Assembly: GCA_038831915.1 (NCBI GenBank)
Contig: JAWBKB010000003.1
Coordinates: 665 to 64,664, forward strand
Direction of reading: 5' to 3'
DNA: 64,000 bases
Source of the DNA: Candidatus Caldarchaeum sp.
Lineage (GTDB): Archaea > Thermoproteota > Nitrososphaeria_A > Caldarchaeales > Caldarchaeaceae
Part shown: positions 27,772 through 63,156 of the stretch, one piece after another
Numbering within the stretch: the first letter of the stretch is position 1
How the letters are laid out: each line of letters begins with the position of its first letter
Notes under the pieces: model-generated
Databases searched by the model: none
The model's input: the letters and a program-made list of their open reading frames with translations, nothing else
What the model was told of the DNA's origin: nothing
Translations under genes and position numbers: made by a program

Positions 27772-28747
27772 GTGATGTTAGCAGGCCGTGTCCTTGTTTT
27801 GGAAGGAGCAGGTGACATGGGCGGCGGCGTTGTCGAGAAACTCGTCGAGCTTGGAGTTGAAGTTGACATCGGGGACATCAACGTTGTTCATGCGTTTAAG
27901 GTTGCGGAATCTTTGAAGAACGCGGTGGACATAACAGTGGTAAAGACCGATGTGTTGTCCCGAACAGAATTAATCACTGTTGCCAGAAAATACGACGTCG
28001 TCGTCAACACCGTCGGGCCGTTTTACAAATATGGGTTTTTGGTGGCCGAAACCCTTGTCAAAGCCGGCGTCAACGCAGTGAATATTTGCTACGACCACGA
28101 CGCGGCTGAGAAGATACTGGGCTTGTTTGGAGAAGCTTCGGCGAATGATGTGACTTGTAACTGGTCTCGGATGGACTCAGGGAGTTTCTAACATTTTCGC
28201 GAATCGATGCTGTGAAGAGCTGGGGGGGAGAAGTTGACGCGGTGGACGTTGGTTGGTTTGGTTCGGCAGCTGATTCTAAAGGGCTGGCCGTTGTCATGCA
28301 TCTTTTCCACACGATAACCGGCAAAGCACCCATGTATTTGAACAGGGAAATCAGGCTTGTCGAAGCCGGGTCTTCGCCCATGTTTTTCGAGTTTCCCCGT
28401 GTTGGGCTGCTGAAGCTTTACTACGTGGGCCATCCAGAGCCGTTGATTTTGCCGAAACATCTCAGGGTTTTGAAAAGGGTTTCTGTGAGGGGTTGTCTGG
28501 TGCCGCAGTGGCAAAATAGTTTGGGCAGGATGTTGGTGAAGATAATTTGACAGCGACCGAGAAAAAGCTTGAAAGGCTTTCATGGTTTATTCACAAGATT
28601 GAGAACGCTTTTAGAGCTGGTGGGTTGGAGCTAAGCGGTGTAAAAGTCGTCGCCGAAAAAGACGGCGAAAAAGTGAGTTATTCAGCCGTGGACAGAATGC
28701 GGAAACTTAGCAACACCCGCAGCTCTGGGCACATACCTCATCCTTAA
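27772..28747 (+). pseudogene. Saccharopine dehydrogenase-like oxidoreductase, split over three reading frames
   Basis: N-terminal Rossmann domain 27772..28191. Middle part with HPEPLILPK motif 28212..28550 in another frame. C-terminal part 28547..28747 in a third. A G7 run at 28222..28228 sits at the first junction. Confidence 0.6.
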
Positions 28748-28818
28748 ACACGAGTTGAAGGAAAAGGGTGTTTTCCCACCTGAAGCCGTAATCAGTCCAT
28801 CACATTTTCTCAAGAGGC

Positions 28819-29771
28819 TTGAATAACTTGGCATCCAAACAATCAGACATTAAACTCCTACTCACGGTCTCCGTCGCCTGCATTCTTTTGTTTGTCACGG
28901 TTCATTTCGTCGCTGAACCAATTATCTCCGAAATACCGGTCACAAGGTCTGATATACGGTTCAACGCCACAAAGGCCTATGAATATGCGTCAAAGCTAGC
29001 GACCAGCTTTCCCAACAGACATACCGGAAGTGACGGAGCGTTTCAGGCGTTCATCTGGTTACAAGACGAGCTACGCGGCATGGGGTACGAGGTCTATGTT
29101 CAGGAATTCGAAGTCATGATAGAGGATCGTAGGAAAGGTAGAAACCTGTACGTGATACATGAAAGTGACAGAGCTGAAGCGGTGGCTGTGTTGGCGAACT
29201 ATGACATGGCTCCGATGAGTTTTCAGGCGGCCAGCGACACAGCCGGTCAGGTTGGGGTCTTGCTTGAGCTGGTCCGTTCGATAAAGGAAGTTTCCACGAA
29301 CAGGGCGGTCGTGTTTGCTCTTGTTGATTCAGAGGAATGGGGATGCAGGGCGCCAAACATTTTGTCGAGAATTATGAAGGACCGGCTCTCAAAGCGGTCA
29401 TAGTGGCTGAAGACCCGACAATAGGCAACATCATGGCAATATACCTCGAATCCATGGGCCAGTTCAAAGGCTATTCGCCTCTCTGGCTGAGGAAGCTTTG
29501 CAGAGACGTCGGCGAGCTTCTCGGAATAACTGTTCAAGACCCATATGGATTCGAGGAATACGTTTACAGGGCTGTCGACATTTCCTTCACGGACCAGGGC
29601 CCCATCTTGGCCAATGGAATTCCCGCCATCGAAGTATCAAGCCGAGGAGATAATCCCGAGCTCGCGGCAACCATCTACCACACGCCTTTGGACGTGATGG
29701 AATACATGCGACCACGTTCCTTCGACGTTTACGGCCGATATGTTTACACGTTTCTCAAAAGCCTGGACTAA
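28819..29771 (+). pseudogene. M28-family aminopeptidase, -1 frameshift near 29340
   Basis: Frame 1 ends ...VFALVDSEEWG. Frame 0 continues MQGAKHFVENY (M28 EEWG..G motif split across frames at tggggatg). Confidence 0.65.
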
Positions 29772-29936
29772 GCAATCCATATCCCACCCTACGATGATAA
29801 CTACCTAATGATTAACGGCGGCGTTTTGCCTGCATGGATAACCTTCATAGCCCCCATCCTTCTCACGATGCCAGCCCTGCTCAACACGATAATGCTCGTC
29901 AGAAGACGCGAATCTATCAGCGGTCTTTACTAATGT

Positions 29937-30482
29937 GTGGTTTATTTTGCGGCCTTCGTTGTTTCATTTTCGTTGGTTCGCTTCTCACCGGATTTGGGCC
30001 TGATACCGAGATATGAAACATATCCGCCGCCGAAACATCCATACCTCTACATGCCCAACCCGATAATCTATTTGTTTTTCATCGCACCGCCAATCGCCGC
30101 GGCTTTTCTTACACCGCGTAGAAAATCCAGCCCTCTTCCCCCCATGCTTTTCCTCACGGCACCCGCCATCCTTTCACTTTTCTACAACAGGTTTGCAACC
30201 GTAGTCATCTTCGCGCCCATCCTTCTGCTCTTGCCATGGATGCCCTATCTTCGAAAACGGCTGTCCAAATCAGTTCTACTGTTCGCGGGCCTCTCTATGT
30301 TCATTCTCCTGCTTGCCAGCTTCGGCGAAAGAATCTTTCTCGGACACTTGATAACGCGGTACGTGTTGCTCGGCGTCGCTTATGGACAGTTTCACTCTTT
30401 CGGCAACATGTTGACAGCGATGACTGGGGCAGCCATGCTATATCTGCTGAGGCACTACATCGTTCACAATCCGGAATCATGA
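29937..30482 (+). CDS. Hypothetical polytopic membrane protein
   Basis: 181 aa, about 5 TM helices. Confidence 0.35.
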   Translation: MVYFAAFVVSFSLVRFSPDLGLIPRYETYPPPKHPYLYMPNPIIYLFFIAPPIAAAFLTPRRKSSPLPPMLFLTAPAILSLFYNRFATVVIFAPILLLLPWMPYLRKRLSKSVLLFAGLSMFILLLASFGERIFLGHLITRYVLLGVAYGQFHSFGNMLTAMTGAAMLYLLRHYIVHNPES

Positions 30483-30624
30483 CCGGTAATCATACGCTGC
30501 ATGAACCCTGCCTTCGACATACGTGTTCACGGGAAAGCTTCGACCACCAAAAACCGATACAATACACCGGACTAGGATAAGACAACTCAAGTTATAATTC
30601 TGAGAGATATGTCTAACTGTTGGG

Positions 30625-31272
30625 TTGAAACAGCCGAGCATCAGCGACTTCTTCACCGGCGACGTCTTGCCTGAAAAAACGTATCTGGTTTACGGCGAAG
30701 ACAAAGCAGGTAAAACATCGCTGGCTCTGACGACGGCGGCGAAAACCGCGGCCCGTGGAATGAAAACTATGTGGATAGATTGTGGAGCGCGTCTTTCACC
30801 ATTACGTTTGAAACAAATAATCCCTGACAAATTTCTGGACAAAATCTACGTTACGCAGCCACGTGGGTTCCGCGAACAGCTAACATCCATCCTCAACATC
30901 CATGACTTCCTACCGTCTGACGTTTCGCTGATAGTTGTCGACGACTTCACAAACCTCCACCGCCTTGAACTAACGGGAAAACCGAGCATCGACCTCCCTG
31001 TTTACAGAGCGTTGTCCCTTCAAGCCGCGTTGTTGAAAAACATCGCGACCACCCGTAAAACAGCTGTCATCATCATCGGGCTTGTCCACGAAATCCCAGT
31101 CATCAACGTCACGACACCGGTCGCGCAACGCATCGTAACCTATTGGACAGACTTGGTCGCAAAAACAACCCGTCAAAACAACAAATACGTCATAGAGGAA
31201 GAGAAACCTGCAAATCGGAAAATCTTTTACAAAATCACGGAAAAAGGTGTAGAGATTTTACCCGGTTTTTGA
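30625..31272 (+). CDS. RecA-superfamily ATPase (RadB/KaiC-like)
   Basis: Walker A GEDKAGKTSLAL, Walker B LIVVDDFT; size about 215 aa like RadB. Start codon uncertain (TTG). Confidence 0.5.
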   Translation: MKQPSISDFFTGDVLPEKTYLVYGEDKAGKTSLALTTAAKTAARGMKTMWIDCGARLSPLRLKQIIPDKFLDKIYVTQPRGFREQLTSILNIHDFLPSDVSLIVVDDFTNLHRLELTGKPSIDLPVYRALSLQAALLKNIATTRKTAVIIIGLVHEIPVINVTTPVAQRIVTYWTDLVAKTTRQNNKYVIEEEKPANRKIFYKITEKGVEILPGF

Positions 31273-31665
31273 CAAATAGCCTCCAATCAGCCCGAGAGCA
31301 GCCAAAACTATCAGCAACCCGCTGAAAACAAGCATGTACTGCGAAGCACGGGGCGTAAACCGTTTACTGTAAGCCATGCCGTAAAGCAAGAAGCCCGCGA
31401 ACCCAAGCAAGTAAAAAGTCGAAGTAACAAGCATTTCCGCGACCGTTTGAATTCTTTGGTCAGGGTAGAAAACACGGATGACGTCGCCGAGAAAAGCAAC
31501 ACCTATCACCACGCCCGATGAAAACCCATACACCAACCCTGCGAAAAACAGCGAAGCCGCAACGACAACAACAATCGCTAACACTTCAACATAGACAGGC
31601 CGTTTAACGGTTTCAACCACCGCGTCAACGATTCGCCGAAACCTTTCAGACATCTCTCGAAACAA
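31258..31665 (-). CDS. Hypothetical membrane protein (4 TM)
   Basis: 135 aa ORF, hydrophobic helices. Confidence 0.35.
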   Translation of the reverse strand: MFREMSERFRRIVDAVVETVKRPVYVEVLAIVVVVAASLFFAGLVYGFSSGVVIGVAFLGDVIRVFYPDQRIQTVAEMLVTSTFYLLGFAGFLLYGMAYSKRFTPRASQYMLVFSGLLIVLAALGLIGGYLSKTG

Positions 31666-31692
31666 GAGAGACGTTTGTTAAAAAAGATATTT

Positions 31693-33423: not shown

Positions 33424-33535
33424 TTTTCGGCGACAACTGCCGAAAATGCGTTATAAAAAATTTCGACAGCGGAGATTAGTCGAAATTCTTGGAGGCTATG
33501 TTCGTATTACTGGGATAGGTTTTTAGTCTGGTTGT

Positions 33536-35728: not shown

Positions 35729-36889
35729 ATGAGAAAAGGGGCGGGACTACTGTTAGCTCTGATAGTGTTGACCATTTTCGCACCATTTCTCCAAGCAGGC
35801 CCGGCATACGGCTTGCTGCGGACATTCGGCTCAGCTGCTCGTGACAACTTTATGGAAAGAGCATATGACATAGAGGTTGACGATTATGGCATTTACATCA
35901 TCGGCTCAACTTATTCACGTTGGGGTCAACCTCAGCCGTCGTTAACTATTTTGGAGCCGGACCACAGTCATCGATGCAGCACATTTCTCGAATTCGTCGT
36001 TGACCCCGATTTCGTTCAGGGCTTTAGCTTCAGTGTGGAGGTTAACCAGACCCATGTGTTTGTTGCCGGGGTACACTGGATACATAGATACGCGGCTGTT
36101 GCGGTTCATGTCGCTACCTTCTCTAAAACCGACTGCAAACTGACGGGGACTTATACATTCAGGTTAGGAAGTACAGGAGACGCATTCGCACTATTCCCGG
36201 CCATGCTTCTTGGAGAGGGAATTGACCTTGCCGTCGATGACAGCGGCGTCTATTTACTGGTGGGATATTTTATAGTCGAAAATCTCGACTTTCACGTCTT
36301 GAAATTCGATCAATACTTGTCACCGGTTGACCAAGGGTTCTACAACATCATTCCTGACAAACCGGACCTCGGATTATCGATAGCTCTTGGTGATGAAAGC
36401 ATTTATGTGGCGGGATTAACCAACTATGACGCGAATCGTCTTGGCGGCGAACGTGTCTTCCTTCTCGAAATCGACAAAAACAATTTAGGAACTATCAGGA
36501 ACGTTACTTTGGTTCGGCCAGTTGACGAATTTTTCACGGGGCTGGAAGTCGTTGTCGACGCGGTCAACGATATCTACCTTGTAACGACTTTTCAGAAATA
36601 CATGGCGAACAACGGCATCGTTGTCTACAAATTTGACCGGAATATGAATCAGCTGTGGACCCAATCTTACGTGCTGACTCGTCCGTATGTCGACCCTTCG
36701 TTCTCCCCACCTGAACACATCCCTGTCAAATTTGCGTACGGAGTTTCCGCGGCGGTTTCCTCAGTGTATCTTTTCGTCGGCGGCTTCATAACCAGTAATT
36801 TCATCTTTGCCGGAGATGAGATCTACAGCGGGTTGTTTGCGGCGATAAACAGCATGGACGGCGAAGCTTTTTTTTCGCCTTCAATATAG
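35729..36889 (+). CDS. Secreted beta-propeller-like domain protein, paralog of the N-terminal half of 31693..33423
   Basis: Signal peptide. Shared SHRCS-containing motif (EPDHSHRCSTFLE vs NSDNSHRCSVALD). Ends with TAG overlapping GTG of the next ORF. Confidence 0.55.
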   Translation: MRKGAGLLLALIVLTIFAPFLQAGPAYGLLRTFGSAARDNFMERAYDIEVDDYGIYIIGSTYSRWGQPQPSLTILEPDHSHRCSTFLEFVVDPDFVQGFSFSVEVNQTHVFVAGVHWIHRYAAVAVHVATFSKTDCKLTGTYTFRLGSTGDAFALFPAMLLGEGIDLAVDDSGVYLLVGYFIVENLDFHVLKFDQYLSPVDQGFYNIIPDKPDLGLSIALGDESIYVAGLTNYDANRLGGERVFLLEIDKNNLGTIRNVTLVRPVDEFFTGLEVVVDAVNDIYLVTTFQKYMANNGIVVYKFDRNMNQLWTQSYVLTRPYVDPSFSPPEHIPVKFAYGVSAAVSSVYLFVGGFITSNFIFAGDEIYSGLFAAINSMDGEAFFSPSI

Positions 36890-38019
36890 TGCCGAAAGAA
36901 TTTCAAGACCCAAACCAAGTTCCCTCTGTGTTAGTCCATGGTGTTGACGCCTTCCGCGACTGCGTCTACCTCGCCGGAGTTTCTCAATACTACAGGCTTG
37001 AATACGTTTTCCTTAACAACTTTAACTTTACCTTTTCATTGTTGACCGATAGCGGGAATCCAACACCGCTCGGACTCAAACATGAGAGACGCTACGACAG
37101 ACCCGACCAATACAGTTGGCAACCCATCTTCGACCAGGACACCGGTGCGTCATCGTACGGTTTTTATGGTGTTTTCTGTGTTGGGTCTTTCATCGCTTCG
37201 ACGACGTCCACGACGACGGTCACCGAAACAGCTACAATCGCCCAAACAACGACGTCCACCACCATGATAACACAGACGGACACGACGACAACCACACGAA
37301 CGACCACGAACACTTTACAACGCACTGTAACTACCACAAGTACTTCTGTCGCCACCGCTCTGGTCACTGACACGGTTTACGAAACACAGGTTGTCTACAC
37401 GACCAACCGCGTTACACGTGAAGAAACGGTCCGCACGACGGTTTATTCCACGGCTTACCAGACCTTAACCGATTACACAACTGTCACGAACGTGGTTGAA
37501 ATGACTAGGCATGGTGCGGGCTTGACCGAAACCGTGCTTCTTGTTCAGAACACGACTACGACAATTTACATGGACCAGACGAGGACTTTTATAACCACTG
37601 CCACCACGACCGTGAAGGAAACCGATTGGATTTCTCTCCCGCCAGTGTTTTACATACCGTTTTTCCTGCTTCCAATCCCCTTGGCCGCGGTTGTGCTGAG
37701 CAGGAAAAGAGTCCGCATAGTCATCAACAAGGCTCATCCGCCGCCTAATTGGAGGACAGGAGACGCGCGTGTCATCGATGACATATATTTCACGCCCAGC
37801 GTCCTCAACATCAGGAAAAACACAACCGTGACATTTGTGAACGAGGACGAAATACCGCACGTCATAGTGGCGTACGACGGGCCTGCGGAATATCTCTTCT
37901 CATCCGAGGAAATTCAGCCGGGAAAGAAGTGGAAGCATAAATTCGTCGAGCCAGGAGTGTATCACATCGCGAGCCTCAACAAACCCTACGCAGGCGCGAT
38001 AATCCGGGTCGGTCGCTGA
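36889..38019 (+). CDS. Thr-rich stalk + TM anchor + C-terminal about 100-aa domain; probably the detached C-terminal half of the preceding gene
   Basis: Begins with propeller-like sequence, then poly-Thr, TM, and a domain with HVIV...PG..W..F.EPGVYH (cupredoxin-like pattern, no Cys ligand). Confidence 0.5.
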   Translation: MPKEFQDPNQVPSVLVHGVDAFRDCVYLAGVSQYYRLEYVFLNNFNFTFSLLTDSGNPTPLGLKHERRYDRPDQYSWQPIFDQDTGASSYGFYGVFCVGSFIASTTSTTTVTETATIAQTTTSTTMITQTDTTTTTRTTTNTLQRTVTTTSTSVATALVTDTVYETQVVYTTNRVTREETVRTTVYSTAYQTLTDYTTVTNVVEMTRHGAGLTETVLLVQNTTTTIYMDQTRTFITTATTTVKETDWISLPPVFYIPFFLLPIPLAAVVLSRKRVRIVINKAHPPPNWRTGDARVIDDIYFTPSVLNIRKNTTVTFVNEDEIPHVIVAYDGPAEYLFSSEEIQPGKKWKHKFVEPGVYHIASLNKPYAGAIIRVGR

Positions 38020-48187: not shown

Positions 48188-48463
48188 GTGTCCGACGACG
48201 CTGACTACTGGATAATCAAAATTCCGAAGCCGCGTAAAATTCTCCGCATCTTTGCAAAGATAGGTCTTTTCATGGGAAACGTTTTCTCACGTAGCTTCAG
48301 TGTCGACGTTCCCCTTATCTTGATCACTTCGCTTCTCGTAGGGGTTGTTTTGTTCATCATGTTCACCGTGGTTTTCCGCATCCCCGATTTTGTTGCAGCT
48401 GTCTTCACGGCGTTGCTCATACTGCTTTACCTACTTGTTCTGAGACGGGAAATGGGCAGGTGA
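48188..48463 (+). CDS. Small membrane protein (2 TM)
   Basis: 91 aa hydrophobic ORF. Confidence 0.3.
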   Translation: MSDDADYWIIKIPKPRKILRIFAKIGLFMGNVFSRSFSVDVPLILITSLLVGVVLFIMFTVVFRIPDFVAAVFTALLILLYLLVLRREMGR

Positions 48464-48823
48464 TGTCCATCTCCAGAAAAAAGCCGCGTCGGCACGTGGT
48501 TTCATAAAGTTGGCGCCGTAAACCGCGAGAGTAAGAGCCATGACGTAATCGTAGTGCTCGCCGACCGGTGCGCCGTATCTCACATGACCGTCCTTGAATG
48601 TCTGCTCAAAATGCCGTAGCTGCTTTATGAGCGTTGTTTCGCCGGCTGGGATGATGAGTTTCCTTTCGAGAACGGTGCTGCAAAGGTTTTTCACAAGCGA
48701 TTCCTTAACGGCTCTGGTAATGGTGACAGGCATGACCGGGGGCAGCTTTTTCTGAAGGAATTCTGAAAACGGCGCCCCCATCCCCGTGATGTCAACAACT
48801 ACCACCGCAGGCTTGAGAATCAA
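48431..48823 (-). CDS. Putative RNase H-fold (RuvC/terminase-nuclease-like) domain protein
   Basis: VVVVDITGMG (beta1 Asp), PAGE, and C-terminal GEHYDYVMALTLAVYG resembling the H..D..A..A motif of RuvC/terminase nucleases. TTG start. Separated from upstream ORF by a single in-frame TAA. Confidence 0.3.
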   Translation of the reverse strand: MILKPAVVVVDITGMGAPFSEFLQKKLPPVMPVTITRAVKESLVKNLCSTVLERKLIIPAGETTLIKQLRHFEQTFKDGHVRYGAPVGEHYDYVMALTLAVYGANFMKPRADAAFFWRWTSPAHFPSQNK

Positions 48824-48850
48824 GGGAGCCTCTTCGATGGCTTTGAGCTG

Positions 48851-49126
48851 TTATTCAAATTTCGCAAACGCCTTCACACACCCGGTTACAAAGTCCTGCA
48901 GCCTAGTGCCGACTTCAAACAACGCGATGCCCAGCCCACGTTTCAAAGCACCGCTGAAAACTCCAAACGCCGACGACAGTTTCTCCGCTTCACGGATACC
49001 TGCGTCACCCAAAGCATGAAGCTGCGTCTTCGCATAGGCTATCGTCTTGACCAATTGGTTCTCAGCCTTGAGAAGAACTTTGACTGTGAAGTTAGGCTGA
49101 GCCATCGGAAGCTTTGTCCAGAACAT
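48851..49126 (-). CDS. Hypothetical alpha-helical protein, in frame with downstream nuclease-like ORF
   Basis: 91 aa. Stop TAA at 48851..48853 is followed in frame by the 48431..48823 ORF. Confidence 0.3.
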   Translation of the reverse strand: MFWTKLPMAQPNFTVKVLLKAENQLVKTIAYAKTQLHALGDAGIREAEKLSSAFGVFSGALKRGLGIALFEVGTRLQDFVTGCVKAFAKFE

Positions 49127-49165: not shown

Positions 49166-49441
49166 TTGTTGACATGTGGAGAAGTCACTTTGACATGCCC
49201 TGTCTGCTGTGGCACAAACCTACTACACGCAAAAATCGAGTCAAACATTCCACCAAACATTCCACAGGCCTTTGAATGCCTCTACTGCCAAACACAGTTC
49301 AGCATTCTCAAGCCTCAGATTTTGGAGTTTGAGGTTTCATGTGAAGAAAGCCGTGAAGAACGGCAGAAGAAAATTAAACGGCGACGCAATTTAGCGGAAA
49401 TTCTCGACGGAATTCTACTCGGATGGCTTCTACGCAAATAA
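49166..49441 (+). CDS. Small Cys-rich (zinc-ribbon-like) protein
   Basis: CPVCCG...CLYCQ pairs, basic C-terminus. Confidence 0.25.
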   Translation: MLTCGEVTLTCPVCCGTNLLHAKIESNIPPNIPQAFECLYCQTQFSILKPQILEFEVSCEESREERQKKIKRRRNLAEILDGILLGWLLRK

Positions 49442-50133: not shown

Positions 50134-50560
50134 TTGAAGAAAAAATTTGTTCTGGGCTCGAGGGGATGGGTGGAAGCTTTTGTCAACGTCCTCAATTCAG
50201 ACCCCGAATACCAGTCTGCCGCAAAGGACTGGGAAGACCCAATAGTCATACTGATGACGGGCCTTCCGCCCAAGCTCCGAGAATATTTTCAAAGTGACGC
50301 AGTTGGATGCTGGTTTGACCTTTACCACGGTCGTTGCAGGTCATTCGAATTAGTGAAAAGCATCGACGAAAAACCCTCGCCAATTGTTCTTTACGGCATG
50401 TATGAAAAAAATCGCGATGGGCAAAGTAAACCCCACCATAGCAGTTGTAACAGGACAGGTCAAGGTCAAAGGAAACATGGCGAAGCTATTATCCAACGCT
50501 GGCGCGTCTTCGGCTTTCGTCAACGCTTTGAAGAAAGTTTCGACGGAGTTTTTGGCGTGA
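50134..50560 (+). pseudogene. SCP2 sterol-carrier domain protein with frameshift at an A7 run (50405..50411)
   Basis: N-terminal half in frame 1 (…VILMTGLPPKL…). C-terminal SCP2 motif MGKVNPTIAVVTGQVKVKGNMAKLL only in the adjacent frame, ending TGA 50558..50560. Confidence 0.55.
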
Positions 50561-50565
50561 ATGAT

Positions 50566-51606
50566 ATGCGGGCTGCGAGGTGGCACGGCTCCCAGGACAT
50601 CCGTGTCGAAGACGTTGACGAGCCTCGGCTACGGGTTGATAGCGATGCTTTGGTCAGGCCTACGGCGGCGTGCATCTGTGGAACCGATATGCATCTCTAC
50701 AAAGGCGACATCACCGCTGTTCCAGGCACCATCATAGGCCATGAATTTGTCGGCGTCGTCGAGAAAGTCGGGCCGTCGGTCAAAAAGTTCCATGAAGGAG
50801 ACCGAGCAATTTCGTCGTGCCGGATAGCTGACGGCGAATGCTGGTTCTGCAGACACGGTTTTTACGCCCAATGTGTCAACATTAACATCTACGGCATGGG
50901 CCCCGTTTACGGCGAAAGCTTGGACGGCTGTTTCGCAGAGCTTGTCCGCGTGCCATACGCCGACACGGTTCTGATTCCCGCTCCACCGAACGTTCCCGAT
51001 GAAAAACTCGTCACAGTCGGTGACAGCCTCGCGACAGGACATCAATCGATGGTTCACGGAGGCATGCGTGAAGGTGAGTTTGTGGTGGTGATAGGCTGCG
51101 GGCCTGTGGGGCTTTACAGCGGCATGTTTGCGAAGATTCTCGGAGCATCCCAGGTCGTTGTCGCCGATGTTTCCGCTGAGAGGCTTGAATATGCAAAACG
51201 GATTGGCTTCGAAACAATCAACGCAGCCGAAGTAGATGTTGCCGAGGAAGTTCGGGCGATGACAGACGGAGTTGGAGCTGATTTCGTCGTCGAAGCGGTG
51301 GGCCGTTCGCAGGAACCTCTCCTCAAAGCCGTCGAAACTGTCCGGAGAAAAGGCACGGTCTCGGTAGTCGGTTTCCATCTTCAGGAATACATCATCCCCT
51401 CGGGAATGCTCTGGCTCACCGAGAAAACACTAGTTTTCTCCATAGGCGACGCCATTAAACACAGCGAAACACTACTCAAATACATCAAGAACAACCGGAT
51501 CGACCCAAGCGTGGTCATCACACATCTGAAAAAACTGGACGAAATTCCGCAGGCGTTTGAAATGTTCGCCAAACAACAAGCCCTCAAAGTAATGATAACA
51601 TTATGA
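50566..51606 (+). CDS. Zinc-dependent alcohol dehydrogenase (MDR family)
   Basis: 347 aa from ATG 50566 (MRAARWHG). CGTDMH, GHEFVG, GCGPVG motifs. Confidence 0.85.
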   Translation: MRAARWHGSQDIRVEDVDEPRLRVDSDALVRPTAACICGTDMHLYKGDITAVPGTIIGHEFVGVVEKVGPSVKKFHEGDRAISSCRIADGECWFCRHGFYAQCVNINIYGMGPVYGESLDGCFAELVRVPYADTVLIPAPPNVPDEKLVTVGDSLATGHQSMVHGGMREGEFVVVIGCGPVGLYSGMFAKILGASQVVVADVSAERLEYAKRIGFETINAAEVDVAEEVRAMTDGVGADFVVEAVGRSQEPLLKAVETVRRKGTVSVVGFHLQEYIIPSGMLWLTEKTLVFSIGDAIKHSETLLKYIKNNRIDPSVVITHLKKLDEIPQAFEMFAKQQALKVMITL

Positions 51607-53280: not shown

Positions 53281-53562
53281 ATGCCCAAAATGTTTTCCAA
53301 ACAGCCGGCGGTGAAATCAATCTTCGCAGTCGGTGAAATTCTCTACAGGCTCGCGGAGGAAAAACAGTTGTCCATGATGAGCGTGGAGAAGGGTGAGTTG
53401 CGGCATCTGCTCAACACTGGGAAGAAACGCGGGAAATCAATCTTCACTATAGCGATTCAGCGTTTCACGGTTTCAACCGTGGTCGCGACGTCGCGGTGGA
53501 TGATTGAATTGGTGGACCGTGAAAAACCGTTGATTGTTTTCAAGGTGAGGTGGGATGAATGA
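53281..53562 (+). CDS. Hypothetical 93-aa protein between RHH and ParB-like genes
   Basis: Starts 3 nt after the RHH stop. 8-nt overlap with the next gene. No family recognised. Confidence 0.35.
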   Translation: MPKMFSKQPAVKSIFAVGEILYRLAEEKQLSMMSVEKGELRHLLNTGKKRGKSIFTIAIQRFTVSTVVATSRWMIELVDREKPLIVFKVRWDE

Positions 53563-54100
53563 AGTTGTTTGGCTCGACGTAATGTGTTTGCGGAAAGGTT
53601 TCTACAACCCGCGAATCGTTCAAGACCTCGACAGAGCGCAGATACTTCTCGAAAGCGTGAAAAAACATGGAATCAAGCAGCCGCTTCTCGTCGTTCCATC
53701 AGCAGACAGCCTGTATGAAGTGTTGGACGGCAGCCGGAGGCTCGAAGCTGCAAAACAAGCCGGAATACAGAAAATCCCATGCATCGTTATTGAAACATCT
53801 CAGATATCGCAGACATCTCTCGCCATCCATTTCAGCCAAGAAGACCTCACCGAACAGGAGCTTATCATCTATGTCTAAAGACTTGTCGCCGAAGAAATTT
53901 TCCCAACGGTCGAGGATTTGTGCCGTTTTCTCGGTGTGTCGAAGTCATGGTTCCACACTTTGAAGAAGGCCGCGAAACTCAGACCGTCAAGCGAAGAGAT
54001 TTCAACAACTTCTCTCGCCTTAATCAAAAAAGCAAACATCGACGAGGAAAAAAAGAAACAAATGCTTGAAGCGTATCCGTTGGCGCGGCATCTTCTCTAG
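53555..54100 (+). CDS. ParB/Srx N-terminal (ParB-like nuclease) domain protein with C-terminal HTH, interrupted by in-frame TAA at 53876..53878
   Basis: QPLLVV...YEVLDGSRRLEAAKQAG...PCIV (ParBc motifs). Downstream in the same frame, EDLCRFLGVSKSWFHTLKKAAKL (HTH) follows after one TAA. Confidence 0.5.
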
Positions 54101-54394
54101 AACGAGTTGGAGGAAATTGTGGATAAACAGCCTGAAAACCCTGTTGAAATCATCGAGAAACATTTTTTGATGACGCCACGTAAAGCCGACGACTACACGG
54201 TTACGGCGTCCGGCACGTATGACTACTTGCTGGGGAAGAATGCTGGCGTTGTGGAGTTTGTGGCCCTCCGCTGCGTGGAAACGCTTTGGCGAATACAGTT
54301 TCCCGCAGCCGATTTACCCGTGGTTAAGATGATGATTCAAAAGCAGTATCGGGATACGTTTTTTACCAGGGTTTATGGGTTAAGCAGGCGTAGA

Positions 54395-55807
54395 ATGGCG
54401 CAGACGGTGTTTGAGAAAATCTGGGATTCTCACGTGCTGGCTGAACGAGAGGACGGCATGACACTTCTCTACATCGACCGGCATTTAACACATGAAGTAA
54501 CATCCCCTCTCGCGTTCGAAAACCTGCGACATTCGGGCCGAACCGTTCGAAGACCAGACCTAACTTTCGCCGTCATGGACCACAACGTTCCCACCACGGA
54601 TAGAACCGAGCCGGTGAAAGACCTCATGTCAGCCGCCCAGATGCAGGCTTTGCAGCGAAACGCCAAACAGTATGGTATTGTTTTGTTCGACTATTTCAGC
54701 CCGTTCCAAGGTATCGTCCACGTCATCGGCCCAGAGCTCGGCCTCACGATTCCCGGCATCACTTTGGTCTGCGGCGACAGCCACACCTCGACTCACGGTG
54801 CTTTCGGCGCTCTTGCATTCGGAATCGGAACAAGCGAAGGAGAGCATGTCTTCGCAACCCAAACACTCTGGCTTAAGAAACCTAAGCAGATGAACATCGA
54901 GCTGAAAGGAAGCCTGCCAACCAACGTCTCGGCGAAAGACATCATCCTATACATCATCCGCACACTCGGAACCGGCGGCTGCATCGGCCACGTCGTCGAA
55001 TTCACAGGGCCTCTCACAAAGCAGCTCAGCGTCGAAGAAAGGATGACTCTCACCAACATGAGCATCGAAGGCGGCGCGAGGACAGCCATCATAGAGCCTG
55101 ACCAGAAGGTGTATGACTACATCCGCGACGCACCCTACAGCCCCAAAGGCCGTGAATGGGACGAAGCCAAGCATTACTGGGAGACGCTCAAAACAGACCC
55201 CAACGCCCGGTACGACGCGTTTCACAGCTTCGACGTCTCAAGCCTCGAGCCACAGGTTACGTGGGGCACAAATCCCGGCATGACAGTCGGCGTAACCGAA
55301 ACCGTTCCGTCACCGGATGACTTTGACGACCCAACTGAGAAAAAATCTGTGCAAAGGGCCCTCGAATACATGGGCCTCAAGCCGGGTATGAATATCTCCG
55401 ACATCAAAGTCGACACCGTTTTCATCGGTTCATGCACAAACGCAAGGCTGAGCGACCTGATCGACGTAGCTCGGATGGTGAAAGGCCGTAGGAAAGCTGA
55501 CGGTGTAAGGGTTTTGGTCGTTCCCGGCTCCCAGCTCACTAAACGGAGAGCGGAGAGAATGGGGCTTCACAGAATATTCATCGAAGCAGGGTTTGAATGG
55601 CGGAACAGCGGATGCAGCATGTGCATAGCGATGAACGAAGACCGGCTCAGACCAGGTGAAAGATGTCTCTCAACGAGCAACCGCAACTTCGAAAACAGAC
55701 AAGGCATCGGAGGACGCACACATCTCGCAAGCCCACTAACAGCCGCCGCAACAGCACTCACAGGAAAAATAACAGACCCAAGAACATTCGAACTACAATC
55801 ACTCTAA
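54395..55807 (+). CDS. 3-isopropylmalate dehydratase/homoaconitase large subunit (aconitase family)
   Basis: 470 aa from ATG 54395 (MAQTVFEKIWDSHV). DRHLTHEVTSP, GDSHT, GSCTN, Cys ligands CSMC. No adjacent small subunit. Confidence 0.85.
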   Translation: MAQTVFEKIWDSHVLAEREDGMTLLYIDRHLTHEVTSPLAFENLRHSGRTVRRPDLTFAVMDHNVPTTDRTEPVKDLMSAAQMQALQRNAKQYGIVLFDYFSPFQGIVHVIGPELGLTIPGITLVCGDSHTSTHGAFGALAFGIGTSEGEHVFATQTLWLKKPKQMNIELKGSLPTNVSAKDIILYIIRTLGTGGCIGHVVEFTGPLTKQLSVEERMTLTNMSIEGGARTAIIEPDQKVYDYIRDAPYSPKGREWDEAKHYWETLKTDPNARYDAFHSFDVSSLEPQVTWGTNPGMTVGVTETVPSPDDFDDPTEKKSVQRALEYMGLKPGMNISDIKVDTVFIGSCTNARLSDLIDVARMVKGRRKADGVRVLVVPGSQLTKRRAERMGLHRIFIEAGFEWRNSGCSMCIAMNEDRLRPGERCLSTSNRNFENRQGIGGRTHLASPLTAAATALTGKITDPRTFELQSL

Positions 55808-56406: not shown

Positions 56407-56629
56407 GGTTGTACCAAAAGTAATACTTCTTTGTAGTATAAAAAATTACTACCAAATTCTCAAACCACAAAGCAGCCTTTCCAAACCTTGCTACAAAAAC
56501 TCAGTCAAGAGCCATAGAGCTGTTGCTGACAGGGCTGTTATGAAAGTCGCGGAAGTTCAACGCGTGGCTGGTCTCATCGAGCAGTTGATGAACATGATGC
56601 AGAAAATCGGGCTCATGAAATTCACGTAG

Positions 56630-57317: not shown

Positions 57318-57511
57318 GGCGTCTGTCTGTGTTTACATGGACATGGTATATAAGGGGTCTTCGCCGAGAATGTTCGAGACAGTTAGATGTAAAAATCACT
57401 TGCATGACGAATTGCTGTTTTAGGCGTTGAAATGACGTCTCAGATGGCATAAGCTATTTAGCTCGTCGAGCGCTATCTTCTGTGGGAATTTGTTTGGTCA
57501 GTTTGGCTAAG

Positions 57512-60236
57512 ATGTTTAACCCACAGGTCGTTGCATTAATCGGTGCAAGCGATAGACCTGGCTCCGTTGGTCTTTCTGTTTTGCAGAACCTTTTGACTGG
57601 GAAGGCGAAGCGTCGTGTTTAAGCGGTCAACCCGAACCATGAAACCGCTTTAAACCTTCCCTGCCATCCATCTATTCGAAACGTTCCTGAACACGTTGAC
57701 CTAGCCGTTATCGCGACGCCCGCGCCGACCGTTCCAGCCGTAGTAGAGGAAAGTGGTGAAGCAGGGGTTGAAGGCGTTGTAATAATTTCCGCTGGGTTTA
57801 AGGAAACGGGGGAGGCGGGTAAACGGCTTGAAGAACAAATCGACATAATCCGCCAAAGATATGGGCTGCGTGTATTGGGGCCCAACTGCATGGGTTTCAT
57901 CAGGCCTTACATCAGTCTCAACGCGTCGTTCTTCAACAAAACACCCGAACCTGGTCAAATCGCCTTCATATCACAAAGCGGCGCCCTCGGCTCGTCCATC
58001 CTCGACTGGGCTGTCACCCGTCACATCGGCTTCAGCATGTTTGCATCGCTTGGCTCGATGCTGGACATCGATTTCGGAGACTTGATAGATTTCCTCGGAC
58101 AAGACCCCTACACGAAAAGCATTCTCCTCTACATGGAAAGCGTTGGAAACGCGCGGAAATTTATGAGCGCGGCGAGAGGATTCGCCAGAAACAAGCCAAT
58201 AATCATCATCAAGCCCGGAAAATTTGAAACAGCTGCGAAAGCCGCCAAATCCCATACAGGAGCTCTTGTGGGAAGTTTCGAAGTATACAGGGCGGCTTTC
58301 CGAAGAGCGGGAGCCGTCAGAGTAGATGAAATACAGGAATTGTTCAACTGCGCCAGCGTCCTCGATTCCAGACGTCTGCCCGTGGGCCTTAACCTCGCCG
58401 TAATAACCAACGCGGGAGGACTCGGAGTAATCACAGCCGACGCCATCGAAGAATACGGCGCGAAACTCGCAACACTTTCCGACAAAACCATAGATGAACT
58501 CGACGGTGTTTTACCCAGTTATTGGAGCCGTGGAAATCCAATCGACATTCTCGGAGACGCTGACGTCAGACGTTACACCACCGCTTTGAGGCTTTGTTTG
58601 AAAGACCGAAACATCGACGGCGTAATCATCATCTACACACCCCAGGGCGCGGCGGAGCCTAACGAGCTTGCGGAATCCGTGGTCTCCGTCGTCAGAGAAT
58701 ATGAATGGGTCAAGCCTGTTTTAACGGTTTGGGTCGGCGGAGATTCTCTAAATGAGGCGCGCAACATCTTCCACCGAAACGACATCCCGACCTACGACAC
58801 GCCTGAACAAGCCGTCAAAACATACATCTACATGTACAAGTACAAACGCAACCTCGAGCTTTTGTACGAAACACCCGAAGACCTTCCAATCGACCCTTCA
58901 CCGCCCAAAAACTTCCTCAAAATACTCGTCCGCAAAGCCTTGAACGAAGGCCGCTACGTTCTCACCCCTGACGAAGCCAACAAATTCCTAGACGTCTACA
59001 GAATACCAAGGCCCGACGGCGTACTCATTTCAAATATCCAAGAAGCACTTTCAGCCTCCCATCACATGGGCTTTCCCATAGCCCTCAAAATCGTATCACC
59101 TAAAATCGTTCACAAAACCGACGTCGGCGGAGTCGTGCTAAACATTTCATCAGACGAAGAACTACGCAAAGTATATTCAAACATGACTGAGGCCCTGAAA
59201 ACAGTCGTTCAGCAACCCGTCGATAATGCCGTCTTCGTCCAGAAAATGGTCGAACCCGTCCATTATGAATTGATTGTGGGCTCGAAGAAAGACCCTGACT
59301 TCGGGTCCGTGATAATGTTCGGCGCCGGCGGCGTCGCGACAGAGTTTTTAAGAGATACTTCGGTGGGGCTTCCTCAGCTAAACCAAGTGGTGGCCCGTCG
59401 GCTGATGGAAGAGACACGAATTTACTCGGTTTTGCAGAAAGGTCTTCGGAACAAGCCGCCCGCTGATTTGAGAAAACTCGAGGAGATAATCGTGAGGTTC
59501 TCCAACATCATCGTCGATTTGCCCGAAATCAAGGAAGCGGAAATCAATCCGTTGATTGTGTAATCAAGCGGCATTTACGCCGTCGACTTTAGGATTATTC
59601 TCGACCGTGAATACACGCAGACCGAAGAACAGTATCCGCATCTCGTCATCACACCGTATCCCACGAAATACGTGAAGCCGTGGAGGCTCAAAGACGGGCG
59701 ATGGGTTTTGCTCAGGCCCATCAAGCCCGAAGACGAAGAAATCGAATACGAACTCATCAAAAAACCTTTCCGAAGAATCGAGCAGGTTCAGATTCTTCAC
59801 CGTAATCCGGGAAAGCACGCATGACATGCTCGTCCGGTTCTGCAACATCGACTACGACCGCGAAATGGCCATCATCGCCGAATACACCGAAGGAGGGGAA
59901 CGGCGCAACGTCGGCGTCGGAAGACTGATCATCGAACCCGACAGGAAAAGAGAATTCGCCGTCCTCGTCGCCGATGACTTTCAAGGGAAAGGCATCGGCA
60001 CAAAGCTTGTCGACACACTTATCGAAGTCGCGATGGAGAAGAAACTCTCCTCAATCTACGGCATCATACTTCCTGAAAACACGCGGATGATTAATCTCTG
60101 CAAAAAACTCGGCTTCACAGTCAAGCATCGCGGCGAAGACGTCTACGTCGAGCTCAAACTCGACACAGGCATCGAACCACGGCCTAAACAACCTGCATCT
60201 CCTCAGCGAATCATGGAAGAAATTCGACAAACATAA
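57512..60236 (+). pseudogene. Pat-like protein: ADP-forming acyl-CoA synthetase (alpha+beta domains) fused to C-terminal GNAT acetyltransferase; interrupted by two in-frame TAA codons and an A6 frameshift
   Basis: MFNPQVVALIGASDRPGSVG...RRV-TAA(57620)-AVNPNHE, where homologs have Y-P-VNP. EINPLIV-TAA(59561)-SSGIYAVDFRIILD (conserved ACD C-terminus). GNAT domain (RFF...IDYDREMA...QGKGIG) enters at frame change near 59759..59764. Confidence 0.65.
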
Positions 60237-60378
60237 GCCACGCGGCCGAACCTTCATCCAACATGCTTCACATATCCTTCACAAAAAGAACATGAATCAT
60301 TTACATCGCTGATGTTTGTGAAGTTTTCATGTTTTTCCACAATCCTTTTTAAAGGCTGGTTGCTGTCGGGCCTTTAGA

Positions 60379-61344
60379 ATGCTGTGGAAATTTGATTTTG
60401 TGTATGAGGTTCCTGCTTCGCCGGGTGAAGTTTACGCTTTTTTCCGCAACGTGGAGAACATGAGTAAGGTCTGGCCCGCGGAAATGAAGATGCGACTGGT
60501 AGCTGTTGAAGGAGATGTTTACACGGTTCGGTTCCAGTTTCTCGGCCAAACCTACACCACGAAATTCCGAATCGAAGACAAGCCCGGCATGAAACAGTTC
60601 CACGAAACACTTAACTTTCCCTTCGGCAAGCTCCAGCATTCAATCGAAATCGAGCCCACAGGCCTTGGCAGCAAAGTCACGGAAAAAATGGAGCTGAGGT
60701 CGAACAACCCATTAGCTGGCTATTTCTTCAAAAAAATTCTCGACTACCGCCATGAAGCAATCAAGCATAGTTTCGGCGTCGTGGCGAAGCCTGTTTACCG
60801 CGACCCGTTCGAGCTCAGCACCGCTGCAGGCAACCTGATATCCATCGTCGGCGTCGCCGCCGCCTACCTACTCCTCATACTCCAGCCTTTCCAGTTCACG
60901 GGCGGACGATTCATCACAGGCATAATCTCATTCGCCCTGCTCTGGTTCTTCACCCATGACCTCGCTCACTACGTCGTCGGAAGAATCGCCGGCATACGCT
61001 TCAGCAACTACTACATCGGGCTCAGCAACATCGTCCGCCTCAACATCATACCGCAGCCGCTCAAAACACTACCGGTAGCCCTCGGCATAAAAATCGACCG
61101 AGAAAACAGCAAAGCAACACCACGCGGATACGCCGCGATGTACGCCGCCGGCCCCGTCGCATCCATGGCTTTTCCCCTCACCGTGCCAATAATCTTCCTC
61201 GCAAACAACGTCAACAGCATCGCAGGACTACTCCTCCTCATTTTCGCAATCGCAAACATCATCTTCACGTCGATTTTCAGTCCCAAAGCAGGATGCTTCG
61301 CAAAAGCACGAAAAGCACTCAAGAAAACAACCACGCAAATTTGA
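60379..61344 (+). CDS. SRPBCC (START/polyketide-cyclase-like) domain fused to a C-terminal multi-TM domain
   Basis: 321 aa. N-terminal about 140 aa soluble, then about 5 TM helices. Confidence 0.4.
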   Translation: MLWKFDFVYEVPASPGEVYAFFRNVENMSKVWPAEMKMRLVAVEGDVYTVRFQFLGQTYTTKFRIEDKPGMKQFHETLNFPFGKLQHSIEIEPTGLGSKVTEKMELRSNNPLAGYFFKKILDYRHEAIKHSFGVVAKPVYRDPFELSTAAGNLISIVGVAAAYLLLILQPFQFTGGRFITGIISFALLWFFTHDLAHYVVGRIAGIRFSNYYIGLSNIVRLNIIPQPLKTLPVALGIKIDRENSKATPRGYAAMYAAGPVASMAFPLTVPIIFLANNVNSIAGLLLLIFAIANIIFTSIFSPKAGCFAKARKALKKTTTQI

Positions 61345-61353
61345 CACTGTTAT

Positions 61354-61836
61354 TTAGAAGGCAGTTTCGAGCAGAACTGTTTGACCGCTTCGGCAAATGC
61401 TCTTTCCTCGTTCCCGTTGAAATGTTTGTCGGCAATCTCTGATAATCTCTTTAGGGTTTTTCTCTGAGTCTTGCAGCATGTATTTTTCTCGGAAAGTCTC
61501 TGTAACTTGATGTTCAAGGTTTTGAGGAACCGTGTAAACGAAAACCTTTACCGCACGGCCAGATTTATCATCTCTAACCTCTAGCGTATTTTCATCTAAC
61601 TGCGATATGCTGGGTTCGATGTTGTGCTTCTTACATCCTGTGTTGAAGAAGTTCTCCAGCCGCTCTTTCCGCAACTTTAACGGCTCATTATCCGAATCGG
61701 TTATCAACACAATCGGCTTGGTTATGCCCGCGCCCAGCAACTGAAGGAGAAGCCTTGTCGTCTTATCGAACAGCCGTGGGACGCCTCCGAAATCAGATAT
61801 CACAACATCGGAAGAAAAAACGTCGCAGCTCCTCAT
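61354..61836 (-). CDS. Small protein with TOPRIM-like acidic motif (IVLITDSDNEP); candidate RloB/AbiLii-like partner of the upstream ATPase
   Basis: 160 aa. DxD-E cluster resembling the TOPRIM DxD motif. Directly downstream of the fragmented AAA_21-type ATPase. Confidence 0.3.
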   Translation of the reverse strand: MRSCDVFSSDVVISDFGGVPRLFDKTTRLLLQLLGAGITKPIVLITDSDNEPLKLRKERLENFFNTGCKKHNIEPSISQLDENTLEVRDDKSGRAVKVFVYTVPQNLEHQVTETFREKYMLQDSEKNPKEIIRDCRQTFQRERGKSICRSGQTVLLETAF

Positions 61837-61944
61837 GAACTATTTCTGAGCTCACGCGTTTAATGTTGACATTATTGTTCTTGAGATATTCTTGAAAAAC
61901 CATACATCGCGCTTCCCTTCACATACGATTAACACATAAGGCAA

Positions 61945-63156
61945 TCACACGCCCCTCAAATCCATCTGGAGCCCCTCCGCTTCACTAAGAGCCTCATCAC
62001 CGCTCAGAACTTCGCAATCAATCTCGCCACGCATCAGATACATCCTGACAACCTGCGTAATGTCTGCGGCTTTCTCAAGCAGCGATTCCAGAAACTTTTG
62101 AGCTGTGCATCGAAATGAAGGTTTGTATGTTGTATTTTTTGATGTATTCGGCCATGTGTGTTGTAGTAAGCTCGATGAAGCCGGGATGCAGGTTTGATTC
62201 AGGCTCTTCAAGAACCAGCGTACCTTCCTTCGACAAGGCAATCGCAAACGCAATACGCAACAAGGCCTGAAAACCATCACCGGTTGACGAAATAGGGATC
62301 GGTTTGTCCAAACCGTCGAAGAAAGCAAAAAGCTCTTCGCCTATGCTGCGTAAGTCTCTCAAATAGCCTATGTTCTCTTTCAGTGAATTCAGCACATCGT
62401 GAAATCGGCCCGACTGAATCAATTTGTTGTAAAGGGATGTTAGATCGATTTTGTACTCAGTTGTCACAGGAAAGACATTGGAGGGAGAAGGGTTGTCTGA
62501 ACGTATCAGTATTAATTGGTCGTGTCGTTTTACTATTATGACTATCTTCTCAAAATCGACATCGCTTAGACAAATTTTGGGAAGAGACTCTATCTGTTTA
62601 ATCCGCTCGACCAATTCTATCATTCTTCTTCTTTCGTCGATGGGTCCGGTAAACTCGTAAGGCACTGCTGTGCGGTTTGCCAACGTGAAACCAGCTGCTT
62701 TGCCTCTCATAATACAGGTCTGGAAAGCCTGCTTCACAGTAAATGATGAGAAGCTCGTTTGTTGTTCCACCCTTTTGTCGTTAACTTTATCCGTGCTCGG
62801 TCATATCCGATTTTAATCCAGTAAATCAGGTTTCACTCTTTGCCAAACATGCGTGTTAGCAGGTCAACGTTTAGGGCATCTGTGTAGCCTGTTGGCGCGG
62901 TGGCTGCGATGGTTACGGCTTCGAGTACGCTGGATTTTCCAGTGTTGTCGCGTCCGACAAATATGTTGATGGGTTTTGTGGCTAGGTCCAGTTTGCCTAT
63001 TCCTCGGAAGTTTTTGACCGTTAGCCTGTTAATCCACACCACCAGCTCAGCATCTGACCATCTCAACGCGATATTAATCTGTTGAAGACGACAACACAGG
63101 TTGTGCTGGGTGAATTTTTGAACATTTCTTATTAGCAAGCTTAACTGAAGCTGCAC
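61945..63156 (-). pseudogene. ABC/AAA_21-type (OLD/AbiLi/RloA-like) ATPase fragmented into three ORFs
   Basis: N-terminal fragment with Walker A FVGRDNTGKSSVLEAV (62833..63156). Middle fragment with signature-like STGDGFQALL, Walker B LVLEEPESNLHP and H-loop (62075..62770). C-terminal fragment 61945..62328. Frames differ. Confidence 0.5.

Follow-up and report, generated by a model that had tools for sequence, protein, structure and literature searches.

Seven genes in a 64,000 nt stretch of a Candidatus Caldarchaeum genome (hereafter, the window) are interrupted by frameshifts or in-frame stop codons, and these lesions are very probably genuine, reflecting an ongoing pseudogenization of accessory genes by ordinary decay. 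The Caldarchaeales were formerly called Aigarchaeota, and the host species has been sampled repeatedly in hot-spring metagenomes. Lesions were called by frameshift-aware alignment to the intact orthologs of sister Caldarchaeum species, which revealed 11 frameshifts and seven in-frame stops (five TAA, one TAG and one TGA; Table 1). An earlier note on this DNA had listed four TAA codons and at least seven frameshifts; every gene it named is disrupted at or near the positions it gave, but the lesions are more numerous and two of the TAA had been misread (see below). It had left the choice between sequencing error and pseudogenization open, and the latter is supported by the recurrence of the lesions in 16 assemblies, by the intact orthologs and by the clustering of the lesions.

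Table 1. Putative pseudogenes of the window, their lesions and associated features (window positions)
Feature	Position	Strand	Description
Saccharopine-dehydrogenase-like (SDH-like)	27775..28826	+	4 frameshifts
SDH-like lesion 1	28156	+	2 nt missing
SDH-like lesion 2	28222-28228	+	1 extra G in G7 run; G6 in other strains
SDH-like lesion 3	28545-28546	+	1 nt missing
SDH-like lesion 4	28709	+	2 nt missing
Membrane-anchored M28 peptidase	28828..30482	+	1 frameshift, 2 TAA
M28 frameshift	29344-29345	+	1 nt missing, EEWG/MQG
M28 stops	29769-29771, 29931-29933	+	TAA; ortholog has Glu at both
Beta-propeller/cupredoxin-tailed surface protein	35729..38019	+	broken by +2 nt (T)
Provirus remnant	48431..49126	-	tape-measure N-terminus joined to terminase C-terminus
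Tail tape-measure piece	49126-48854	-	codons 1-86
Junction TAA	48851-48853	-	between two unrelated gene remnants
Terminase large subunit piece	48850-48431	-	last ~139 codons
SCP2	50134..50560	+	8-bp deletion
Zn-dependent alcohol dehydrogenase (ADH)	50566..51606	+	intact in window
ParB-like nuclease	53555..54349	+	TAA, TAG, lost terminator
ParB-like stop 1	53876-53878	+	TAA; Glu in orthologs
ParB-like stop 2	54098-54100	+	TAG
ParB-like terminator	54347-54349	+	mutated to TAT; ORF continues into aconitase gene
Pat (acyl-CoA synthetase-like + GNAT protein acetyltransferase)	57521..60236	+	2 TAA, +1 A
Pat stop 1	57620-57622	+	TAA replacing Tyr
Pat stop 2	59561-59563	+	TAA replacing Ser; TCA in 4 strains
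Pat frameshift	59759-59764	+	1 extra A in A6 run
AbiL/AriA/OLD-type ABC ATPase (defense-system ATPase)	61948..63066	-	TGA + 3 insertions
ATPase stop	62833-62835	-	TGA
ATPase frameshifts	near 62781, 62666, 62101	-	1-nt insertion each

The clustering of the lesions is far above chance expectation. All 18 are confined to seven of the 58 genes, where about 15 genes would be expected to be hit by random placement, and none of 200,000 simulations of such placement hit seven genes or fewer (P = 0). The first 27 kb, with 23 genes, carry no lesion (hypergeometric P = 0.02); the excess of disrupted genes refers to this window alone. The core genes are free of lesions, and the affected genes lie in the accessory half of the window.

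Intact orthologs of the SDH-like, M28, SCP2, ParB-like, ATPase and Pat genes align across the lesions, as does an intact conspecific allele of the beta-propeller gene, and the sister-species orthologs run in a single, unshifted frame through the lesion sites of the window. In the SDH-like gene, all five segments align to an intact 360 aa ortholog (P0001, locus L104) with 255 of 357 residues identical; the gene had been placed at 27772..28747 over three frames, and while it is indeed disrupted, it ends at 28826. The M28 peptidase, aligned to the 551 aa ortholog of loci L103 and L104, had likewise been described correctly as split at the EEWG/MQG motif, but as a gene at 28819..29771, short of its true end and with both TAA codons missed as lesions. 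The Pfam M28 profile match is split over this pseudogene (5-71 and 69-191), and its lesions are identical across 10 assemblies, two strains having an additional 1-nt deletion at 30339.

In the beta-propeller gene, TTGTTC has become TTTTTTTTC at 36865-36875 (+2 nt), with a T8 run at 36868-36875. The TAA at 36887-36889, where the gene had been thought to break, is the first stop reached out of frame after the +2 shift, so that the gene is broken by a frameshift and not by an in-frame substitution. An intact 762 aa allele occurs at three loci (L001, L004 and L108); with the 2-nt shift taken into account, 760 of its 762 residues match the window. Within the population the length of this T run varies, as does that of the SDH-like G tract (G6 or G7), and surface protein genes such as this one are typical targets of phase variation in bacteria; the two tracts could therefore be regarded as contingency loci, turning their genes on or off. 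This is most improbable, as the in-frame surface-gene allele is TTGTTC, with neither a homopolymer nor a shorter T tract, and the T8 therefore arose by substitution plus insertion; moreover, the surface gene shows only two states, each shared by descent. The SDH-like G tract is accompanied by three other fixed frameshifts, so switching at the tract would restore nothing.

Pseudogenization also accounts for SCP2, where an 8-bp deletion (CATGAAGA) at 50404-50411 lies between ATGAA direct repeats. The disruption had been placed correctly at an A7 run, which is itself a product of the deletion, as is a 490 aa chimeric ORF (50134-51606) that joins the SCP2 N-terminus to ADH. An intact 144 aa SCP2 allele is found at six loci (L011, L012, L013, L016, L019 and L106). 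The adjoining ADH gene is frameshifted in five other strains by a TG deletion at 51083, and both genes are intact only in GCA_038831565.1. SCP2 and its neighbor ADH have been knocked out independently in different strains.

The ParB-like gene, for which a single TAA at 53876 had been reported, carries that stop but also a TAG at 54098 and has lost its terminator. A one-frame alignment across both stops matches the 270-280 aa orthologs of loci L021-L024, and the lesions are fixed in nine assemblies. The syntenic locus of these relatives holds intact ParB, SCP2, ADH and an ATPase of 367 aa, the ATPase ortholog being that of L022. In Pat, 756 of 916 residues are identical to those of an intact 918 aa homolog (P0113), and three strains have a separate TGG to TGA change at 59683. 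The ATPase was correctly described as spread over three frames, and besides its three frameshifts it carries a TGA; 222 of 367 residues are identical to the L022 ortholog, and the two halves of the Pfam AAA_15/AAA_21 match fall on different ORFs. The ORF at 61945-62328, the third frame, has no Pfam match and might be taken for spurious, but by alignment to the ortholog its last 49 codons are the true C-terminus. The L022 ortholog matches the PADLOC model PDC-M38A over its full length, and the AbiLi and AriA models as well; with a HEPN/MNT pair nearby, the suggestion of a toxin-antitoxin/defense islet is reasonable.

One supposed gene pair did not survive closer comparison. Two ORFs taken for an RNase H-like gene split by the TAA at 48851 are instead the N-terminus of a tape-measure gene and part of a terminase large subunit (TerL) gene, meeting at a deletion junction. 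Compared with the N-terminus of a PhageMin_Tail/tape-measure protein that is encoded at the syntenic site of L022 and is at least 417 aa long, the 91 aa ORF shows 58% identity; it showed no similarity to TerL. The 139 aa ORF aligned, in an exhaustive HMMER search, to residues 301-434 of the 437 aa TerL protein P0234 (Terminase_6N+6C), the gene for which, in L118, adjoins the same host genes as the remnant in the window. A word-indexed homolog search with the terminase fragment matched only the fragment itself, and a tblastn search against 84 loci of relatives (L021-L104) gave no match. Judging from these similarities, the pair is the leftover of a tailed provirus, nearly the whole of which has been deleted; sister species keep more of this provirus, and the window has lost almost all of it.

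The earlier note had proposed comparison with an independent assembly and with an orthologous genome, and both were informative: uninterrupted orthologs were found in sister species, as described above, and the proteins of the window recur on contigs of nine NCBI MAGs and seven Logan-assembled runs, at 99.6-100% DNA identity. The fixed lesions are base-for-base the same in these 16 assemblies, which derive from distinct samples and were built by two pipelines, although most of them probably represent one study region and one platform. Being shared by so many assemblies, the lesions cannot be random sequencing errors. An artifact of homopolymer-biased indels and substitution errors in one MAG might be suspected because about three of the 11 frameshifts lie in runs of at least six (G7 at 28222, T8 at 36868 and A6 at 59759), because G and T run lengths vary among assemblies, and because scaffold N-gaps produce spurious split genes in some MAGs; indeed, split XDH, AglB, ABC ATPase and SucD genes in other MAGs were rejected as further pseudogenes because they coincide with scaffold gaps of about 100 N. 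The window has no N-gaps at its lesion sites, however, and eight of the 11 frameshifts, 2-nt and 8-nt deletions included, fall outside long homopolymers, while 46 homopolymers of at least six (six of them at least seven) within intact genes are all in frame. Errors would also not be expected to concentrate in seven genes instead of spreading over all. The names of the relatives' MAGs match a study from Tengchong that used Illumina HiSeq 4000 sequencing and SPAdes, and the data are presumably from this platform, which is not prone to homopolymer indels. The sequencing-error alternative is thereby largely refuted, and an artifactual origin is highly improbable.

It could also be supposed that the lesions are real but harmless, with ribosomal frameshifting, transcriptional slippage and TAA read-through restoring full-length proteins. 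Segments past the lesions are still 60-80% identical to orthologs, some of the shifts coincide with runs that look slippery (G7, A6), and five of the seven in-frame stops are TAA. Such programmed recoding would, however, require three or four distinct events in each fixed gene (+1, -1, +2, TAA, TAG, TGA), and this multiplicity argues against it, as do the unshifted orthologs, the absence of any such site in a core gene and the variation of lesions between strains. Of 51 intact genes, 27 end in TAA, which makes it the most frequent true terminator, and TAG and TGA are found in frame too, which bears out the earlier view that TAA is not a recoded stop; no suppressor tRNA was found within the window. 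Recoding is thus very hard to credit.

Returning to pseudogenization, differing stages of decay would be represented among the seven genes, which appear to be non-essential. Five (SDH-like, M28, ParB-like, Pat and the defense ATPase) are disrupted in every sampled strain with three or four lesions each, counting the strain-variable TAA of Pat and the lost terminator of the ParB-like gene; in these, an initial lesion would have lifted selection, and subsequent lesions would have piled up neutrally. The knock-outs of the beta-propeller and SCP2 genes appear to be young and segregate with intact alleles, and the ADH TG deletion, seen in other strains only, would be a third young event. Probable sources of mutation are slippage in short repeats and homopolymers, microhomology-mediated deletion, and substitutions to stop codons (GAA to TAA three times, TAY to TAA and TCA to TAA). 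Loss of function is likely for all seven genes, probably as a neutral rather than an adaptive event, and some fragments may retain residual function.

Variation among strains gives a view of this process. Three lesions are polymorphic, other strains carrying intact alleles, and other strains have lesions of their own (the ADH TG deletion and the Pat TGA). The strain-specific states comprise T8 or TTGTTC, the SCP2 8-bp deletion or the ADH TG deletion, TAA or TCA and TGG or TGA in Pat, G6 or G7, and the extra M28 deletion at 30339. SNPs number 5.4 per kb in pseudogenes and 2.7 per kb in intact genes, and the ratio of nonsynonymous to synonymous changes is 25:14 in multi-lesion pseudogenes versus 56:67 in intact genes, a weak signal that purifying selection may be relaxed (Fisher P = 0.065, on about 40 SNPs). 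Synonymous sites are saturated relative to the sister species (50-80% amino-acid identity). Amino-acid identity to orthologs is equally high before and after the lesions, so inactivation was recent. The Caldarchaeum population is nearly clonal, its 16 samples being at least 99.6% identical.

The chief value of these results is practical, in that annotation should treat the ORF fragments as pseudogenes and not as separate genes; they do not challenge current understanding. Public gene calls list the fragments separately (138 + 102 + 66 aa, 194 + 144 aa, 557 + 50 + 136 aa and others), and a 562 aa 'aconitase' call has a false N-terminal extension derived from the ParB-like pseudogene. Pat, the SDH-like enzyme, the M28 peptidase and the AbiL/AriA-like ATPase should not be treated as functional when the metabolism of this Caldarchaeum is reconstructed. 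The window also provides a small population snapshot of decay in an uncultivated thermophile, with fixed multi-lesion pseudogenes beside young polymorphic knock-outs. That its lesion density (about 12% of the genes, further lesions still segregating) extends genome-wide, as early reductive evolution after a bottleneck or sweep, is conceivable but rather unlikely; if so, a free-living thermophilic archaeon would have been caught early in reductive genome evolution.

Frameshift and nonsense decay of dispensable genes is well known in prokaryotes, and such pseudogenes are catalogued by, for example, NCBI PGAP or Pseudofinder. A literature search on Caldarchaeum pseudogenes found no paper. The genes described here resemble the classical cases in having intact orthologs in relatives and several disabling lesions per gene, in affecting accessory, defense and mobile-element genes, and in being strain-variable, with constraint that may be relaxed; there is no essential difference, except that local density is high (seven pseudogenes among 58 genes, and a provirus remnant besides) and that decay is documented at the population level in an uncultivated Caldarchaeum. 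A caudoviral provirus of Nitrososphaera viennensis reportedly exemplifies the defective or remnant tailed proviruses of Nitrososphaerota. As in these, host genes flank a terminase large subunit gene and a tape-measure gene, but the window keeps only the two terminal gene fragments (86 and 139 codons), which meet at a deletion junction; in sister species (L022 and L118) this site is occupied by fuller copies. The alpha-fucosidase gene fucA1 of Sulfolobus solfataricus is said to be an interrupted gene whose full-length product, made by programmed -1 frameshifting, was shown experimentally. Like fucA1, the genes of the window include archaeal genes in which a short slippery sequence marks the passage from one frame to another; fucA1 has a single specific site, whereas the window genes have several heterogeneous lesions, stops included, and orthologs that are unshifted.

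The excess of interrupted conserved genes that the earlier note read from the sequence alone is real but was under-counted: seven genes of the window carry 11 frameshifts and seven in-frame stops (five TAA, one TAG and one TGA). Lesions were called with a purpose-written frameshift-aware protein-to-DNA aligner against intact orthologues or intact conspecific alleles, which align across the lesions of all seven genes. The M28 peptidase is disrupted at the motif that the note had named, but it extends beyond the 29771 given there. The break in the beta-propeller gene had been counted as an in-frame TAA at 36887, but no TAA substitution hit this gene: the intact allele, found in two other MAGs, differs from TTTTTTTTC in the window by 2 nt, and the TAA is only the first stop met in the frame shifted by that upstream insertion. 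In PADLOC, the models PDC-M38A, AbiLi and AriA all recognise the orthologue of the ATPase.

Interrupted genes of the window and the corresponding provirus site in sister species
Feature	Position	Strand	Lesions or content	Reference
SDH-like (saccharopine-dehydrogenase-like)	27775-28826	+	4 frameshifts: 28156 (2 nt missing); G7 run (+1 G); 28545 (1 nt missing); 28709 (2 nt missing)	360-aa Caldarchaeum orthologue, 71% identity over all five segments
M28 peptidase	28828-30482	+	1 frameshift at EEWG/MQG; GAA>TAA at 29769 and 29931	551-aa membrane-anchored orthologue
Beta-propeller	35729-38019	+	+2 nt, TTGTTC to T8	intact 762-aa allele (loci L001, L004, L108)
SCP2	50134-50560	+	8-bp deletion	intact 144-aa allele, six loci
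ParB-like	53555-54349	+	TAA 53876; TAG 54098; own terminator now TAT	270-280-aa orthologues
Pat (acyl-CoA synthetase-like + GNAT acetyltransferase)	57521-60236	+	TAA 57620; TAA 59561; A6 run at 59759 with +1 A	918-aa homologue, 82% identity
ATPase (AbiL/AriA/OLD-type)	61948-63066	-	TGA 62833; three 1-nt insertions	367-aa orthologue, syntenic position, sister species
Tape-measure/terminase ORF pair	48431-49126	-	86 + 139 codons only, joined at TAA	
Provirus site, sister Caldarchaeum species	L022:1-1254; L118:853-2166		terminase (437 aa) and tape-measure (at least 417 aa), two edges, same host genes flanking	

The window has an even composition of about 50% G+C and archaeal gene content (AglB/STT3, UPF0182, Nop10 and diphthamide-synthase-like genes), and the nearest relatives of its aconitase (78–84% aa identity) lie in MAGs named Candidatus Caldarchaeum sp.; NCBI also gives this name to the Pat fragment of the window itself (P0167). 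Exact-protein matches yielded a conspecific set of contigs from nine NCBI MAGs (GCA_0387/0388...) and seven Logan assemblies of separate sequencing runs, with 99.6–100% DNA identity to the window. Judging by matching MAG naming, the related MAGs probably stem from a study of Tengchong hot springs that used Illumina HiSeq 4000 sequencing and sample-by-sample SPAdes assembly (PMC11094006).

Sequencing error, one of the two explanations offered in the earlier note, is refuted. The fixed lesions (those present in every sampled strain) are reproduced base for base in every covering assembly (8–10 per site), and runs of six or more hold only about three of the 11 frameshifts. The remainder include 2-nt deletions and the 8-bp SCP2 deletion between ATGAA repeats, which itself created the A7 run seen there. 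Intact genes contain 46 homopolymers of at least six nucleotides, six of them at least seven, and every one is in frame. Random placement of 18 lesions among 58 genes would hit about 15 of them, seven or fewer being reached in none of 200,000 simulations, and the first 27 kb (23 genes) is free of lesions (P = 0.02). Scaffold gaps of about 100 N in several NCBI MAGs (L004, L015, L105, L112, L113 and L116) produce spurious splits of the xanthine-dehydrogenase-like, AglB, ABC ATPase and SucD genes, which could be mistaken for further pseudogenes.

Programmed recoding, by which the interrupted genes would still yield their products, is not the explanation either. The orthologues have no shift at the corresponding sites, the window encodes no tRNA other than tRNA-Val, and TAA terminates 27 of 51 intact genes, bearing out the earlier rejection of a recoded stop. 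Given reproducible lesions and intact orthologues or alleles, the second explanation, pseudogenisation, is supported, and all seven genes can be called pseudogenes with high confidence.

Decay is ongoing in the population and differs among strains. The window and four assemblies have a broken SCP2, whereas six loci of five assemblies keep the gene intact. In five strains the adjacent Zn-ADH gene is disrupted instead, by loss of TG at 51083, and SCP2 is intact wherever their assemblies cover it. Different strains have lost one gene or the other through separate mutations, and a single MAG (GCA_038831565.1) retains both. The window allele (50134-51606, +) is a 490-aa ORF in which an out-of-frame linker joins the N-terminus of SCP2 to ADH. 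Four strains have TCA (Ser) in place of the second TAA of Pat, three of them carrying another nonsense mutation (TGG>TGA at 59683), and the dead M28 gene has a further internal deletion in two strains. Eight loci have a G6 run in the SDH-like gene, against G7 in the window and two others. Of nine indel polymorphisms over about 63 kb, two are intergenic, and all nine leave the core genes undisrupted. Pseudogenes carry 5.4 SNPs per kb and intact genes 2.7, and nonsynonymous to synonymous counts (25:14 in multi-lesion pseudogenes, 56:67 in intact genes; P = 0.065, not significant) suggest relaxed constraint. The beta-propeller gene, intact in part of the strains, has two nonsynonymous SNPs against ten synonymous ones, the pattern that a very recent knock-out should show. 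Intergenic A-run length also varies at 6456-6462 and 33454, the window having one A more at 6456 than all six spanning conspecific loci (L112-L117). A 91-aa ORF of no assigned function (49166-49441, +), conserved at 60% identity in sister-species locus L022, has lost one nucleotide in four strains (A3 to A2 at 49218) and may be another young knock-out.

The RNase H-like pair, earlier regarded as one gene split by a TAA, consists of two ORFs matching different proteins. The upstream 91-aa ORF shares 58% identity with residues 1-86 of a tail tape-measure protein (PhageMin_Tail and many PHROG tape-measure families) that a sister species encodes at the syntenic site. The downstream 139-aa ORF matches residues 301-434 of a terminase large subunit (Terminase_6N and RNase H-like Terminase_6C), whose gene in another relative adjoins the very host genes that are found here in the window. 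The two homologies meet inside the TAA codon (GAA T/AA CAG), which therefore marks the junction left by deletion of nearly the whole provirus. Compared with the flanking terminase and tape-measure genes of the sisters, the short remainder implies that a caudovirus-like provirus was almost fully deleted in the window's species.

Loss of its terminator means that the ParB-like ORF continues into aconitase. Public MAGs call the latter as 562 aa (54101-55807, +), the first ~92 codons being the dead ParB 3' end and a former intergenic region with a TATA-like TTTTTTAC that relatives share; aconitase proper starts at the ATG near 54395 (MAQTVFEKIW). The whole Pat region (57320-60370) lacks a counterpart at the syntenic site in sister loci L022 and L024, where ~130 bp separate the HEPN gene from the Polyketide_cyc2/M50 gene that comes next, so it was either inserted in the window's species or deleted in the others. 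In sister loci L101-L104 the intact SDH-M28 pair adjoins an IS240-family transposase and a VapBC pair, and unrelated sequence truncates M28 after residue 268 in L101 and L102, making this a variable island in relatives too. Directly downstream of the dead ATPase, a 160-aa gene (61354-61836, -) without a family match is still intact; the two are conserved together in L022, and it may be the partner in a two-gene AbiL/PARIS-like defence module.

The main use of the finding lies in annotation and metabolic inference in the Caldarchaeum lineage. Within the literature library searched, no paper ties Caldarchaeum to pseudogenes. The only more interesting reading remaining, that this lesion density extends genome-wide, is improbable. 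Homopolymer phase variation does not fit, the SDH-like gene being dead at either G6 or G7 and the intact beta-propeller allele reading TTGTTC. Functional interrupted genes have archaeal precedent in the programmed frameshifting of Sulfolobus, but this does not fit because it requires a single conserved site, whereas each fixed gene here would need three to four different events. The decay is instead ordinary in kind, classical prokaryotic pseudogene formation, and what it has struck is dispensable: a provirus and the genes for a surface protein, a defence ATPase, a ParB-like nuclease, a peptidase, a dehydrogenase and a regulatory acetyltransferase.
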